Sequence record: PP400787 | Reading direction: 5' to 3' (one strand) | DNA length: 64,000 bases | Source of the DNA: Escherichia phage FL23 | In this document: positions 39,137-59,248 of the stretch, in pieces | How the letters are laid out: each line of letters begins with the position of its first letter | Numbering within the stretch: the first letter of the stretch is position 1 | The notes under the pieces: model-generated | Database searches by the model: none | What the model was told of the DNA's origin: nothing | The model's input: only the letters and a program-made list of their open reading frames with translations | Made by a program: the position numbers and the translations under genes

Positions 39137-41115
39137 TGTGATATAGGCTCCAAATCGATAGTTAAGTATTGTGGACGTAAGTCATTTTCAAATACAATCA
39201 GTGAACCGTCGCGAGTAAAGATAACATCATCGGTTGGGTCAGAATATAATTCGATGGTCTGAACTTCAAATTTTTCAGATGTTAAATTAATTTTAGCGAT
39301 ATTCCAATAAATCACATCAGCTGGATAATTTATTTCACCGATAACATAGTATTTGTCGCGTCCATCAGAATTTGCTAATTTGTTAAAATCGTTGCCTGTA
39401 TATGGCTGAATGTTTTCATTTTCTGTAACATCGCCAGAAGCAAATGGACCAATAATAACTTTACCAATTCCTTTAGAATCTCGGTCTGTTGATACTATAC
39501 GAACGTCATATAATACATCTTCTTCTAAACCAGTATCAGGATTTACAACCTTTCGTCCAGAATTAAATGAAAACGTATTAGATTCCATAGAACGATCTTT
39601 TATTTGATTATTGTATTTAATACCCGCTTCAGGCGTTTTATAGAAGTTTTGTACTTCACGAACCATTTGAATAGTCGCTGATGAACCAATGACAGAATGA
39701 TCTGCATCATCTACATATGTCAACATCTTAGATTTAGCGAAAGACGAGTTAAAAATTTCTACATCTTCGGTATAATAGCGATCAATTTTATCAATTATTT
39801 GACCTTCAAGCCACTGTTCGGATTCTTGCAGTTTATTTAAAGCATATGTGACTTTTAAATTAGTCTTAATAAAAAGATAATTAGGAGAAATAATTGATGG
39901 CGTAATAGGAGCTAAATTATAGTCTTTGAGATAATTTTTAATATCTTCACGCTGTACAGTAGTTAAATACAGACCTGATTTAGGTTTAGCAGCAATGAAT
40001 GCATAACCAGGTTTAGTAGAATCAGTGAAAGTCTGAACTGCTTGAATAATAGAACCAAATCTCTCTGAAACGAATGTATCATAGTCAGTCGCAGTTACGC
40101 AGCGTTGCTGGGTTTCGCGTTTAATAGTACCCAATTCGCGAATACGTTCAATATCTTCTGGATCGCCGCCGCCATCTGCCCCAACAAAATCTGGGTCATC
40201 GTTTGGATTTTCATTAATGTTGATGACAGTTATATTTGTCAATGTATCTGCATATGAAAATCCGACTGCTCCGTTCGCGTCAGCACCATTAGTACTGATG
40301 TACTCAATGACAATCGTAGAATTCTGAGTAGGTTTAAGACCTCCGATATAATTAGCGGTCAAAGCTCCTTCTGCCGCATTAACAGAAATTTCACCTTCAC
40401 CAAAATAGAATTCAGTGTTTCCATCAATAGTTTCACGCATATAGTAAATCGTTGATGTTGAACCAGCATGAACCATTGACTTTCTTGTCCAGTTAATCCA
40501 TTCTGCTCCATCAACGTATAGTTTAACTTGGTTTCTATCTATATTTTTGTCATAAATGATAATAGGTGTTAATTTATCATAAATGATTTCAGTTCTTACT
40601 ATACGTCCCTGGGCCAATTTTAAACGTGGAAAATATTGGTTATTTTTATCACGAATAGCAATAACATCTTCAGTAGATACAAAGTTGTAAGGATTAACTG
40701 AAGTATCTTTTGCATATGCTAAAAAGCGAGTACCACGAGGAATAGTAATGTAATTTCTATTCAATGCGTCTGTACAAGTTAGCATAATTTCAGTTTGAGC
40801 AGCTGATTTTGAAGTAGGTAAATATCCATTATCTTGTGCCGCTTGAACTACTGAACTACGTAAGTTAGCAGTACGCATAAAGCTTTCATACACGGCAGCA
40901 TTACCAAACTGCTGAATGTATAATGTATTATAAGCCAAAAGGTCGCACAGAACGTTTAATCTCGAGCCTTCAAAATCATAATCCAAAAATTCATTTTGAC
41001 CATTAAGCCATTCAATGAGGTTTTGTTTTATTTCAGCAAACGTACCCCCGACGAATATCTCGGGAATAGCATTTGCTGTTCTTGTTAATTGATAATTTAC
41101 AGGGGTATTTGCCAT
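39133..41115 (-). CDS. 6: Baseplate wedge protein (gp6-like)
   Basis: 660-aa ORF, same length as T4 gp6. Confidence 0.85.
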   Translation of the reverse strand: MANTPVNYQLTRTANAIPEIFVGGTFAEIKQNLIEWLNGQNEFLDYDFEGSRLNVLCDLLAYNTLYIQQFGNAAVYESFMRTANLRSSVVQAAQDNGYLPTSKSAAQTEIMLTCTDALNRNYITIPRGTRFLAYAKDTSVNPYNFVSTEDVIAIRDKNNQYFPRLKLAQGRIVRTEIIYDKLTPIIIYDKNIDRNQVKLYVDGAEWINWTRKSMVHAGSTSTIYYMRETIDGNTEFYFGEGEISVNAAEGALTANYIGGLKPTQNSTIVIEYISTNGADANGAVGFSYADTLTNITVININENPNDDPDFVGADGGGDPEDIERIRELGTIKRETQQRCVTATDYDTFVSERFGSIIQAVQTFTDSTKPGYAFIAAKPKSGLYLTTVQREDIKNYLKDYNLAPITPSIISPNYLFIKTNLKVTYALNKLQESEQWLEGQIIDKIDRYYTEDVEIFNSSFAKSKMLTYVDDADHSVIGSSATIQMVREVQNFYKTPEAGIKYNNQIKDRSMESNTFSFNSGRKVVNPDTGLEEDVLYDVRIVSTDRDSKGIGKVIIGPFASGDVTENENIQPYTGNDFNKLANSDGRDKYYVIGEINYPADVIYWNIAKINLTSEKFEVQTIELYSDPTDDVIFTRDGSLIVFENDLRPQYLTIDLEPISQ

Positions 41116-54565: not shown

Positions 54566-54909
54566 ATAAAGTCAAATATTCGTTTTCTGAGTCATTTTTA
54601 ATTTTTGCTGTGGCGTTGGCTGCAGCTCTTGCAGGTAGTCTTTTTGGATTGTTAATTGACTGTCTTATTTTAAACATCGACGGCACAGTAAATATAACAG
54701 AAGTTTGGAGTGAGCTTTGTTATACTAAAATTATTTCATTGTTTTCATTCTTTGGTTCCATGTTATATTTTCATTATGATAATTTTAAAATAAATTGGCA
54801 AAGAAAAAAAGATTACAAAATACAATTAAAAGAATATAATAGCTACATGTCTTATATTGAAAATGAGTCAATGAAAGAGTTTGTGAGTGATTGTAGGAAA
54901 ATTAAATGA
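54547..54909 (+). CDS. Small membrane protein, paralog family member 2
   Basis: 120-aa ORF; TM segments; C-terminus ...KEFVSDCRKIK. Confidence 0.5.
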   Translation: MQKPKLNKVKYSFSESFLIFAVALAAALAGSLFGLLIDCLILNIDGTVNITEVWSELCYTKIISLFSFFGSMLYFHYDNFKINWQRKKDYKIQLKEYNSYMSYIENESMKEFVSDCRKIK

Positions 54910-55394
54910 TTTTAAAAACTCGCTGGTATGATTTAGATGATGGGGACGATGGCATTTCAGTTGATAGAGTTGACTGGAATGGTTGTTCCGAAGATATGAA
55001 AAATTTGTTGATTAGGGAGTTTAGAATGGGATATCAAGCAGCTAAGCCATTTACTGTAACAGATGATAAGTTCGTATGTATTCAAAACGGTCGCGCTAAG
55101 TTAACGAATGCTGATTGGTTCACAGATAAGAAGGTTCTTCTGTGGTATATCATTAGTCTTCCTATATCATCGTTCGTATTTTACTTTTTTATAAAAAATC
55201 CAATGGACAGAATAGGAGATTGGGTTCTTTTAACTATACTTGTTAATATTTTTACAGCAGCAGTATTATCAGGAATATGGCGTATGTTCATTGAAATGCC
55301 ATGGCGTTTACGCAGACAACAAAAGATTTTTGATGAAAAGAAATATACTCAAAATTTAAATAACTTTATCACTGAATGCAGGAAATTAAAATGA
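54906..55394 (+). CDS. Small membrane protein, paralog family member 3
   Basis: 162-aa ORF; TM segments; C-terminus ...NFITECRKLK; ATGA coupling on both sides. Confidence 0.5.
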   Translation: MILKTRWYDLDDGDDGISVDRVDWNGCSEDMKNLLIREFRMGYQAAKPFTVTDDKFVCIQNGRAKLTNADWFTDKKVLLWYIISLPISSFVFYFFIKNPMDRIGDWVLLTILVNIFTAAVLSGIWRMFIEMPWRLRRQQKIFDEKKYTQNLNNFITECRKLK

Positions 55395-55831
55395 AAACAC
55401 TATCAGCTGGTATTATCTTTATGACAGAAGATAAAGATTTATTTATGGGTCGGGTTACTGGTTCTCGTAAGCCTGGAATGATGGCACATCGCTGGGATAT
55501 TCCAAAGGGCCGCGTAGAAAGTTCTGATTTGAATGCACTGGAAGCTGCAAAAAGAGAATGCTTAGAAGAGACCGGTTTTAGCAATTATAATCCAGACCTT
55601 CTAGAAGACCTAGGTGTATTTAAATATTCTAGTAATAAAGACTTACAGTTATTTTATTATACGATTCCAGTAGAGCATGAGATGTTTAGAAATTGCCATT
55701 GCGAGTCTTATTTTGAAAATAAAGATGGCGTTATGATTCCAGAGATGGATGCTTTTGCTCTTATTCCTCGTACTCAGTGGCAATATGTGATGGGTCCTTC
55801 ACTTTACCGAATAATGAACAACCTCTTTTAA
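55391..55831 (+). CDS. nudE: Nudix hydrolase (NudE-like)
   Basis: Nudix box GRVESSDLNALEAAKRECLEETGF; start set at ATG 55391 (ATGA overlap with upstream stop, SD aggaaa) rather than the track's 55376. Confidence 0.75.
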   Translation: MKTLSAGIIFMTEDKDLFMGRVTGSRKPGMMAHRWDIPKGRVESSDLNALEAAKRECLEETGFSNYNPDLLEDLGVFKYSSNKDLQLFYYTIPVEHEMFRNCHCESYFENKDGVMIPEMDAFALIPRTQWQYVMGPSLYRIMNNLF

Positions 55832-56634
<803 letters not shown>

Positions 56635-56635
56635 T

Positions 56636-56689
56636 GTTTACTTCCTCCAAGGGTTTTGATACTATACATTCATCAACTACTTGGAGGAA
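56636..56689 (+). promoter_or_regulatory. Early promoter with SD-sequestering stem-loop (PeSL-like)
   Basis: GTTTACT, 17-nt spacer, TACTAT (56660-56665); 10-bp inverted repeat 56642-56651 / 56680-56689 whose 3' arm contains SD GGAGG. Confidence 0.6.
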
Positions 56690-56692
56690 ATT

Positions 56693-56795
56693 ATGACCCG
56701 TCCGAAGCGTCCATTGCGATAAGTCAAGCACGCTTAGATAAAAAATTGCTCAACGCCCGACTTGGTACAAATACTTTGGTAAATCAATTTACTAA
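56693..56795 (+). pseudogene. denV: denV (endonuclease V / pyrimidine-dimer glycosylase) relic: start codon context plus about 30 C-terminal codons, frameshifted
   Basis: ATG-ACC-CGT (MTR) then out of frame; frame A reads [12 protein letters not shown], frame B (after A6 run 56740-56745) reads [16 protein letters not shown], matching my recollection of T4 DenV C-terminus (...[32 protein letters not shown]); about 105 internal codons are absent. Confidence 0.6.
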
Positions 56796-56801
56796 GGAAA
56801 A

Positions 56802-56987
56802 ATGAAAATGTATCAAGAATTTATCGTTGAAGCAGATGCCAAAGGTCCTAAATTTAAAGTTAAAGCTTTCATTGGTGATGCGGAAGACTTTGGCTCATTA
56901 AAACGTAATGGGTATTCTTTCTTAGGTGGCGATGGTAAAGAAATCAAAACACCTATGCAAAACGTAGTGAAATTGCTTATGTTGTAG
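56802..56987 (+). CDS. Internal-protein-like capsid-targeted protein (CTS MKMYQEFIVE...), possibly truncated by frameshift
   Basis: 61-aa ORF with SD aagga; a second open frame 56939-57064 continues with protein-like sequence. Confidence 0.5.
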   Translation: MKMYQEFIVEADAKGPKFKVKAFIGDAEDFGSLKRNGYSFLGGDGKEIKTPMQNVVKLLML

Positions 56988-57067
56988 CAAGTCCTAAAGT
57001 AGATGTTGACGATATTGGATATGATTTTAACAACTTCGGAATTATTTCTGGCGGTAAAGCTTAAACG

Positions 57068-57097
57068 GTTTACGCTTAAGTATTAATATGGTATAAT
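57068..57097 (+). promoter_or_regulatory. Early promoter
   Basis: GTTTACG, 17-nt spacer, TATAAT (57092-57097). Confidence 0.6.
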
Positions 57098-57125
57098 TAC
57101 TCTATCAAAACAAACAAGGAAACAT

Positions 57126-57428
57126 ATGAAAACGTATAAAGAATTTATTACTGAAGCGCGAGTGAGTGCAGGTAAATTATATGCCGCTATAAATAAAAAG
57201 GCCCATTCATTTCATGATTTGTCCGATAAAGACCGTAAGAAACTTGTAAGCCTTTATATTGACAAAGAGCGTATTCTCGCTCTTCCTGGCGCTAATGAAG
57301 GTAAACAGGCAAAGCCTTTGAATGCTGTTGAAAAGAAAATTGATAACTTTGCTTCTAAATTCGGTATGTCTATGGATGACCTTCAGCAAGCGGCTATCGA
57401 AGCAGCTAAAGTAATTAAAGGTAAATAA
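57126..57428 (+). CDS. Internal-protein-like capsid-targeted protein (CTS MKTYKEFITE...; IPII-like size)
   Basis: 100-aa ORF with SD aagga and CTS-like N-terminus. Confidence 0.6.
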   Translation: MKTYKEFITEARVSAGKLYAAINKKAHSFHDLSDKDRKKLVSLYIDKERILALPGANEGKQAKPLNAVEKKIDNFASKFGMSMDDLQQAAIEAAKVIKGK

Positions 57429-57430
57429 CA

Positions 57431-57460
57431 GTTTACTTTCTCCTAGAATTGTGATAGTAT
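57431..57460 (+). promoter_or_regulatory. Early promoter
   Basis: GTTTACT immediately after the stop of the previous gene, 17-nt spacer, TAGTAT (57455-57460). Confidence 0.5.
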
Positions 57461-57541
57461 ATTCATAATTACTTGGAGGGGTAAATACAGAAATGGACAA
57501 TTCATGCGCCACGGAATGGCCCAACATAAAAGAGAAACTAA

Positions 57542-58093
57542 ATGAGAACATTTTTAACTGGACCTTATCTATCCCTGATGAATGCTTTTACACACCATTC
57601 TGATGCTAGAGTAGAAGAAATTTGTAAGAACGGTTATGTCCCACCATTTGAAGATGTACTCAAGCAGTACTGTACACTTCGTTTAGACGGCGGCAGACAA
57701 TCAGGTAAATCAATTGCTGTGACTAACTTCGCTGCTAATTGGTTGTATGATGGCGGAACTGTTATTGTTCTTTCTAATACTTCAGCTTATGCTAAAATTT
57801 CTGCTAAAATTTCTGCTGGCAACATTAAAAAAGAATTTTCTCGTTATTCTAGCGATGATATTCGATTCCGTTTATTTACTGATTCTGTTCGTAGTTTTAT
57901 TGGCAATGAAGGTTCTAAATTCCGTGGATTAACGCTTTCTCGTATTCTGTACATAATTGACGAGCCTATTAAAGCTCCTGATATGGATAAGATTTACAAT
58001 GTCCATATTAAAACAGTCCAACACTGTTGCAAAAGCAAATATTGCATCGGCGGTAATGCTCGTCCTCAATTTTTTGTGATTGGAATGCAATGA
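57542..58093 (+). CDS. Small P-loop NTPase-like protein (183 aa)
   Basis: Walker A-like GGRQSGKS and Walker B-like ILYIIDE. Confidence 0.5.
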   Translation: MRTFLTGPYLSLMNAFTHHSDARVEEICKNGYVPPFEDVLKQYCTLRLDGGRQSGKSIAVTNFAANWLYDGGTVIVLSNTSAYAKISAKISAGNIKKEFSRYSSDDIRFRLFTDSVRSFIGNEGSKFRGLTLSRILYIIDEPIKAPDMDKIYNVHIKTVQHCCKSKYCIGGNARPQFFVIGMQ

Positions 58094-58398
58094 TGACCAC
58101 TATTGAAGTTTTTGAATATTGTTATAACAGCCCAGTATGCAATAAAAGGGCTCTTGTAGAAAATTACGAGATTTACCATTTTAAACCTAAACGATATCGT
58201 TTGACTAAAGGTCCGTTCGCAGGGCAGCAGGTTCTTTGTACTGCTCCTAATGCACGGTTAATGACTAGTATTCCGCATTTCAAAATGGAATTTATTGATG
58301 GGCCATTTAAGGGATTAATCACTCAAAGTTTAATGGCGTTTAATTCCGACCCATTTTTGATTAAAGAAAAAACTTGGATAAATTTATTTTCTAATTGA
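58090..58398 (+). CDS. Hypothetical protein (102 aa)
   Basis: ORF with ATGA coupling to upstream gene. Confidence 0.5.
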
Positions 58399-58405
58399 GG
58401 TTATT

Positions 58406-58768
58406 ATGAAAGCATATCAAATTCTTGAAGGTGCACATAAAGGCACTATTTATTTTGAAGACGGTACTCAAGCCCGGATTATTGTCTCTAAGACTTTTAA
58501 AGAAGACGCTATTGTAGACCCGGAAATTTTCTACGGTTTGCATGCCCGTGAAATTGAAATTGAACATCAACCTAAAGTTAAAATTGAAGGTGGTCAACAT
58601 CTGAACGTTAACGTTCTGCGTCGTGAAACTCTGGAAGATGCAGTTAAGCATCCGGAAAAATATCCGCAGCTGACCATCCGTGTATCCGGTTATGCAGTTC
58701 GCTTTAACTCTCTGACTCCGGAACAGCAGCGCGACGTTATCGCTCGTACCTTTACCGAGAGTCTATAA
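58406..58768 (+). CDS. Autonomous glycyl-radical cofactor-like protein (GrcA/YfiD-like; T4 Y06I-like)
   Basis: C-terminal 60 residues (...[60 protein letters not shown]) carry the glycyl-radical motif RVSGY; SD gagg. Confidence 0.75.
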
Positions 58769-58989
58769 TGGCTAAATTGATTATAGAAGGGTCTGAAGAT
58801 GTTTTAAAATGTTTTGCCGCCTGGTTTAGTTGCTCAGGCGAGCAATCATTCACTGAAGCATTTAGAATGGGTGATATTACTGGAAACTATCCGACAACTG
58901 ATATCACTGTACGTGGATATGGTATTAATGAACCTATTCGTTTAGTTGAATACGATTTATGTACTGGTGAGGAAGTCAAATATGATTGA
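58768..58989 (+). CDS. Hypothetical protein (73 aa)
   Basis: ORF coupled (TAATG) to upstream gene. Confidence 0.45.
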   Translation: MAKLIIEGSEDVLKCFAAWFSCSGEQSFTEAFRMGDITGNYPTTDITVRGYGINEPIRLVEYDLCTGEEVKYD

Positions 58990-59248
58990 AGATATTAAGG
59001 GTTATAAACCACATACTGAAGAGAAAATAGGTAAAGTAAATGCTATTAAAGACGCTGAAGTTCGTTTAGGACTTATCTTTGACGCTTTATACGATGAATT
59101 TTGGGAAGCATTTGATAGCTGTGAAGATGATGAACTCGCGAAGAATTACGCCGAAAGCCTCGATCAGTTAACTATTGCTAAAACGAAACTCAAAGAAGCT
59201 AGTATGTGGGCTTGTCGTGCTGTGTTCCAACCAGAGGAAAAATATTAA
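58982..59248 (+). CDS. Hypothetical protein (88 aa)
   Basis: Verified ATG 58982 overlapping upstream stop. Confidence 0.45.

Follow-up and report, generated by a model that had tools for sequence, protein, structure and literature searches.

The 103 nt at 56693–56795 (plus strand) of the window, i.e., the whole 64 kb stretch of Escherichia phage FL23 DNA that was analyzed, raise the question of what has become of denV in this phage, how the greater part of the gene was lost, and what the loss would mean for its carrier. The gene encodes T4 endonuclease V, a pyrimidine-dimer glycosylase/AP lyase. The first-pass annotation regarded the stretch as a denV gene reduced to a frameshifted relic of ca. 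100 bp, and this description is borne out by our analysis: the remnant measures 103 nt, is distributed over three reading frames, and occupies the position where relatives carry an intact denV, with both of its ends homologous to that gene. We consider it very probable (roughly 93%), judging from sequence comparison, that 56693–56795 is a dead remnant of a denV allele of the RB69 type, which would have been reduced by a 310-nt deletion bounded by repeats and subsequently by a 1-nt deletion, and which would no longer specify a glycosylase.

The surroundings of the remnant indicate the type of allele from which it was derived. Upstream, on the same (plus) strand, are found nudE (55376–55831) and the lysozyme gene e (55868–56356), both named after the T4 and RB69 annotation, and an internal-protein-like gene that resembles ORF127c of RB69 (56353–56634). 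Downstream follow a second internal-protein-like gene, a homologue of RB69 ORF125c of which the product starts with MKMYQEFIVEA (56802–56987, plus strand), an ipII-like gene (57126–57428, plus strand), and then homologues of vs.8, vs.7, and vs.6. This is the gene order of RB69 (e, ORF127c, denV, ORF125c), and Pu-Krd-SF5, JK42, NicPhage, and G2133 also possess an intact denV of 137 codons in that arrangement. The order in T4 is different (e, ipIII, ipII, denV, vs.8), so that denV of T4 follows ipII whereas the relic lies between the ORF127c and ORF125c homologues. In a blastn comparison with intact genes the relic is 98% identical over 100 nt to the 3′ end of denV of G2133 (E 4e-47) and 97% identical to that of RB69, a resemblance that chance would not produce. 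The alignment with the T4 denV locus that had been proposed as a check does exist but is weak, comprising a single stretch of 36 nt at 92%, and the allele is of the RB69 rather than the T4 type. The high identity to the RB69-type alleles, together with this weak T4 alignment, therefore identifies the parent allele as RB69-type, an allele that is found in phages of both Tequatrovirus and Mosigvirus.

The ORF125c homologue (56802–57065 in its full extent) carries a +2 frameshift of its own at about 56946–56953, where the window reads AAAACACC and the inferred sequence in JM17 and RB69 is AATACC. Its product ends at 61 instead of 86 amino acids, and the remainder can be read in another frame to 57065. 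The sequences suggest that JM10 and Pu-Krd-SF5 have the same insertion, and a second gene in this small denV block thus looks degraded.

The anatomy of the remnant is simple. Codons 1–3 (ATG ACC CGT, 56693–56701), encoding the N-terminal MTR, are fused out of frame to codons 106–137, and both pieces are still recognizable as members of the same family as T4 denV. As had been noted from the sequence, the frame is lost directly after MTR: the native ATG now opens a frame of only nine residues, MTRPKRPLR, terminated by TAA at 56720–56722 (56693–56722, plus strand), which is the sole product left to it. The codons 106–120 are read at 56698–56739 (plus strand) in the +2 frame relative to the ATG (tblastn residues 103–122, 85% identity), and the remains of codons 121–137, including the original stop codon TAA (56793–56795), in the third frame at 56740–56795 (plus strand; tblastn residues 121–137, 94% identity). 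Both downstream frames had been assigned beforehand to the C-terminus of DenV by comparison with the T4 sequence; both are indeed read in this way, and the T4 sequence used for that assignment is identical to that in NC_000866. A continuous open reading frame of ca. 137–138 codons from the native ATG is not present in the relic, which encounters its first stop after 9 codons where intact relatives continue for 137, and, other than in T4 denV, there is no open frame linking the pieces.

Alignment of the relic with the intact denV of Pu-Krd-SF5 requires only one clean gap of 310 nt and a separate gap of 1 nt, and the sizes balance exactly (414 − 310 − 1 = 103 nt). What was deleted comprises codons 4–105 and part of the next codon. 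The estimate of about 105 missing codons in the first-pass annotation was therefore slightly too high, 310 nt corresponding to about 103 codons and one base. Since 310 is not divisible by three, codon 3 joins codon 106 out of frame and the stop codon at 56720–56722 is encountered. The first change of frame is caused by the large deletion itself; the second has a separate cause, i.e., a 1-nt deletion at 56739/56740 (plus strand), where GATGAAAAAATT of the intact alleles has become GATAAAAAATT by loss of the G of GATGAAAAAATT. This second lesion splits the 3′ fragment into two frames.

Both end-points of the large deletion are explained by the sequence of the intact alleles. A single copy of a 13-bp motif, AATTATGACCCGT, remains at 56689–56701 (plus strand), and comparison with the intact alleles places the deletion junction somewhere within it. 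In the intact RB69-type alleles this motif occurs twice as a direct repeat: the first copy begins 4 nt ahead of the ATG and ends with codon 3, and the second lies 310 nt downstream, across codons 103–107. The two copies agree at 13 of 13 positions in JK42 and NicPhage and at 12 of 13 in Pu-Krd-SF5 (GCC) and in RB69 and G2133 (GTC); denV of T4 does not contain such a 13-bp repeat. Parental repeats are thus present at both end-points and one copy is left in the product. A 310-nt gap with a flanking repeat of this kind is, on the evidence of the alignments, what is classically left behind when DNA between short direct repeats is deleted. In the ancestor, denV would have been of the RB69 type and would have lain downstream of the lysozyme gene e, with an internal-protein-like gene on either side; one repeat copy and all intervening DNA would have been lost when the two copies recombined or replication slipped from one to the other; and the 1-nt deletion that broke the 3′ fragment would have occurred later, in the lineage of the window.

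Studies by Pribnow et al. in 1981 and by Singer and Westlye in 1988 reportedly described rII deletions of T4 that had arisen spontaneously between short direct repeats. As in those mutants, the end-points of the denV deletion lie inside a short direct repeat (here 13 bp) of which one copy is left. There are two differences. The rII deletions were selected laboratory mutants, whereas the denV deletion is a natural polymorphism of field isolates. Furthermore, one of the denV repeat copies includes the ribosome-binding spacer and the start codon, and the expression signals have survived.

A junction of this type could in principle be spurious, arising from sequencing or assembly errors or from a deletion during the laboratory propagation of a single stock. 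Short-read assemblies can collapse repeats, and the 1-nt deletion adjoins a run of six A residues. However, a repeat of 13 bp is too short for assembly collapse, and what is missing at the 1-nt lesion is a G, with the A-run unchanged in length; this lesion is common to FL44, JM10, FL12, and the window. Moreover, 13 phages that were isolated and sequenced independently, in several laboratories and countries, carry the deletion, and their sequences have since diverged. In view of these many independent genomes and their later divergence an artefact, the probability of which we consider negligible, is excluded.

The distribution of the deletion was established with a 37-nt junction probe, for which a required word of 28 nt bars the 37-mer from matching intact alleles. 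It retrieved 14 records representing 12 phages with the identical junction, i.e., FL44, JM10, FL12, JM17, FL18, F27, G8, G4498, BF15, Phaginator, 235Ecol030PP, and B1.1. A variant junction, ATGTCCCGT (ATGTCC), for which the probe carried a T at the polymorphic position of the repeat, occurs in Shinka only. With Shinka counted, the 310-nt deletion is known from 13 distinct sequenced isolates of Tequatrovirus and Mosigvirus. The stated origins of the carriers are Denmark, Germany, Poland, and the USA, and the stated sources pig faeces, a pig farm, manure, or sewage. In IMG/VR the junction 37-mer was found in the G8 genome only and in JGI metagenome contigs it was not found, a result that is uninformative on its environmental occurrence.

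This distribution poses the question of whether the deletion arose once or repeatedly. At the junction Shinka has the base that G2133 and RB69 carry in their downstream repeat copy, and both flanks of this junction nearly match those of the intact G2133 allele. Shinka would accordingly be best explained by a deletion of its own, in which the crossover fell within the AATTATG portion of the repeat. We favor at least two independent deletions, a reading based on one nucleotide in Shinka and on the flanking haplotypes of a few sequences, which the frequent recombination among T-even phages could blur.

The alternative is a single ancestral deletion of 310 nt that spread by homologous recombination to the 13 carriers in two genera, with the T of Shinka as a later mutation or gene conversion. 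The identity of the junction in 12 phages would fit such a history, as would the presence of the carriers on two haplotypes of the e gene with varied downstream genes, recombination being common around the locus, and the AAT variant that is carried by nine type-A carriers and is absent from the five intact alleles examined. A deletion defined by repeats should, however, yield the same junction each time it arises, the junction base of Shinka corresponds exactly to that of the G2133/RB69 downstream copy on flanks nearly identical to G2133, and the group to which the window belongs has the ancestral AGT where most other type-A carriers have AAT. A single origin is therefore possible but, in our opinion, doubtful.

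Whichever number of origins applies, the locus has been reshuffled. Two clearly different haplotypes of the e gene occur among phages with the same internal-protein/denV module, and FL12 switches from one to the other in the middle of the gene; recombination breakpoints thus lie no more than a few hundred bases away from the relic. The two e haplotypes and the differing downstream genes among the carriers show that the locus is a mosaic, so that recurrence and recombinational spread are both plausible. The relic itself has also continued to change. The type-A carriers comprise three sub-haplotypes, and the 1-nt deletion occurs only in the window, FL44, JM10, and FL12, not in the other ten carriers. 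Apart from this lesion, the differences among carriers are AGT/AAT, GCT/GAT, and CGT/CGC, some of which would change amino acids in the ghost frame, and the segment is too short for a test of rates.

A more far-reaching scenario, which we consider rather unlikely, is that the 13-bp repeat makes denV of the RB69 type a deletion hot spot that recurrently yields denV-null variants, that these would be tolerated or even favored in coliphages of gut and sewage, where UV exposure is low, and that the promoter cassette would be kept for the internal-protein genes. If true, loss of denV would be a recurrent, ecologically patterned event instead of a one-off accident.

The signals that once drove denV can still be recognized. 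An early promoter is predicted from the sequence at 56637–56665 (plus strand), with a −35 box TTTACT (56637–56642), a spacer of 17 nt, and a −10 box TACTAT (56660–56665), and it fits the T4/PST early-promoter consensus TTTACW-N17-TAYWAT (PMC4122927). This upholds the earlier proposal of an early promoter and Shine-Dalgarno sequence in front of the relic, even though a generic sigma-70 scan (TTGACA/TATAAT) missed the promoter, which has 8 of 12 matches to that pattern. A perfect 10-bp inverted repeat, TTCCTCCAAG at 56642–56651 and CTTGGAGGAA at 56680–56689 (plus strand), is predicted to form a hairpin that encloses the −10 box and has the Shine-Dalgarno sequence GGAGG (56683–56687, plus strand) inside its 3′ arm; RNA folding of 56642–56689 yielded −19.1 kcal/mol with a z of −3.7. 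The T4 denV leader has the same promoter architecture and an equivalent predicted hairpin with different stem letters, and the existence of this counterpart with another stem sequence suggests that the hairpin may be a conserved element. A hairpin of the type known from T4 gene e could mask the ribosome-binding site in transcripts that read through from upstream. The promoter is nearly identical between deletion carriers and intact alleles, and none of the 14 deletion carriers, the window included, deviates from the others in promoter, hairpin, Shine-Dalgarno sequence, or ATG. These expression signals owe their survival to the position of the upstream repeat copy, which starts only 4 nt ahead of the ATG.

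Such complete conservation might indicate that the stump is kept for a function of its own, either as a promoter/leader cassette for the internal-protein genes or as the source of a new small protein of 9 or 49 amino acids. The good fit of the promoter to the T4 early consensus would be in line with this, and so would the position of the next gene, which starts 7 nt past the old denV stop codon, and the fact that gene callers annotate an open reading frame of 49 amino acids. This frame (56656–56805, plus strand) is a mechanical one, beginning with a TTG inside the −10 region, and its translation yielded no match in a Pfam search. Since its start sits inside the −10 box, it falls outside the transcript of the denV promoter. 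In JM17, FL18, and B1.1 the counterpart has another frame end and comprises 46 amino acids. Consequently, the 49-aa frame and the 9-aa peptide were rejected as real genes: the frame is not conserved among carriers, the start lies inside the −10 box, and there is no family match. The same variation in frame and length (49 vs. 46 aa) argues against a retained function, as does the gene downstream, which is itself frameshifted in the window, and the positions of the repeats fully explain the deletion end-points, so that selection need not be invoked. We therefore regard a function of the stump as highly improbable and adhere to the interpretation of a dead remnant. The orphan promoter presumably still fires and probably still feeds the downstream internal-protein genes; that it matters for these genes as a selected function seems quite unlikely.

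The annotation of the stump in public records is heterogeneous. In GenBank it is labeled as a 46-aa ‘endonuclease’ in JM17, FL18, and B1.1 and as a 49-aa ‘hypothetical protein’ in FL44, JM10, and FL12, and the records of G8, G4498, BF15, Phaginator, F27, Shinka, and 235Ecol030PP give it no annotation. None of these records marks it as a pseudogene. A description of the denV relic was not found in the searchable literature, and the paper reporting FL44 does not mention denV (PMC12032242).

The consequences for the enzyme follow from what has been deleted. With codons 4–105 gone, no active DenV protein can be made. In a search for the Pyr_excise domain (Pfam PF03013), the intact relative matched over residues 1–87 with 53.4 bits against a cut-off of 23, while neither the open reading frame of the relic nor a spliced reconstruction gave a match to this domain at E up to 1; the deletion has taken away the entire domain, and in this respect the relic differs from T4 denV. 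The intact relative also matches the T4 endonuclease V structures 2END and 1VAS over its full length. Catalysis by T4 endonuclease V involves the amino group of the N-terminal Thr2 and Glu23, with Arg22 and Arg26 participating in DNA binding. The codon for Thr2 is left in the relic (56696–56698); codons 22–26, which include those for Arg22, Glu23, and Arg26, fall inside the 310-nt deletion. On these grounds we infer, soundly in our view, that the pyrimidine-dimer glycosylase activity has been lost, and the UV sensitivity of the phage would be expected to approximate that of a T4 v mutant.

A second, intact copy of denV would alter this expectation, and the earlier proposal to search the rest of the genome for one was followed with the genome of FL44, a Tequatrovirus from pig faeces in Denmark that has been reported to have a 99.77%-identical sibling, FL23 (PMC12032242). 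The window is 100% identical to FL44 (PP400790.1) over 24 kb, and a comparison of 54800–58999 (4.2 kb) with the FL44 record revealed two differences, a SNP and a 1-nt indel. The FL44 genome was assembled for the search from the window and the remaining segments of the FL44 record. A six-frame tblastn search of this complete genome with DenV of the RB69 type and of T4 did not reveal a second denV; the significant hits were the two relic fragments only (56689–56748 and 56742–56792, E 6e-11). Because of the two differences in 4.2 kb this result holds for FL44 and not strictly for the phage's own genome outside the 64 kb.

The next-best hit in FL44 (39510–39656) lies in a coding sequence at the position of gene 49, labeled ‘endonuclease’, which was considered as a substitute for DenV. 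It is 41% identical to DenV residues 56–101 over 49 amino acids (E 7e-4). This protein, which we take to be an endonuclease VII-like enzyme and not a glycosylase, was rejected as a substitute, the match being a short local similarity inside a different enzyme; such local similarity between DenV and the gene-49 nuclease, two T4 enzymes of DNA repair and resolution, has reportedly been remarked on in the older literature.

The two differences between the window and FL44 in this region are a SNP at 57329 and an indel at about 58075. The FL44 record has one fused coding sequence of 858 nt at the latter position, where the window and its relatives have two genes, vs.8 (57542–58093) and vs.7 (58090–58398). 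The fused coding sequence may be either a true difference between siblings or an indel error in the deposited FL44 sequence.

The first-pass annotation had also connected the relic with the UV-sensitive phenotype of T2 and T6. Work by Streisinger in 1956, Harm in 1963, and Yasuda and Sekiguchi in 1970 is said to have dealt with the classical u/v difference in UV sensitivity, T2 and T6 reportedly being naturally deficient in denV. Natural denV-null T-even phages have been known for decades. The expected phenotype, i.e., a T-even phage without a pyrimidine-dimer glycosylase of its own, is indeed shared. The genotype is different: the window retains the denV promoter, start codon, and 3′ end, whereas no DenV-like sequence was detected, at E up to 1, at the corresponding loci of T2 (AP018813, 61000–68000) and T6 (MH550421, 57500–68000). 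In T6, e is directly followed by regB and the block with the internal-protein genes, denV, and vs.3–vs.8 is missing; in T2 other small genes lie between e and vs.7, and denV and vs.8 are absent from the locus. T2 and T6 thus lack denV in another way, so that the link is reduced to an analogy of phenotype. The possibility that the window itself represents a T2 or T6 genotype was likewise dismissed, FL44 being its best match and the T2 and T6 loci having other gene orders and no DenV hit.

The region has counterparts in the hyperplastic regions and promoter-early stem-loop (PeSL) cassettes that have been described for T4-like phages (PMC2839356, PMC4122927). As in those cassettes, a variable internal-protein region contains an early promoter with a stem-loop, and the content of downstream genes differs between carriers. 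In contrast, the denV deletion did not take place between PeSLs: one of its repeats lies at the start codon and the other within the coding sequence. The hairpin of the relic has the −10 box and the Shine-Dalgarno sequence inside it and is not a terminator beside the promoter.

The denV relic is an ordinary pseudogene. The mutational mechanism that produced it is well known, the region in which it lies was already known to be hypervariable, and knowledge of DenV or of repair in T-even phages is unchanged by it. It does allow the annotation of the stump in public records to be corrected, and rates of short-repeat deletion in natural T-even backgrounds could be measured by a simple PCR across the repeat-defined junction. 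The significance is modest: the locus provides an example, at the sequence level, of how T-even phages in the field lose the one enzyme they have that is dedicated to the repair of pyrimidine dimers. UV sensitivity is predicted for FL44 and for a dozen further isolates, some of which are under study for receptor use or therapy, and it would be relevant to their environmental stability and to the UV handling of phage preparations.
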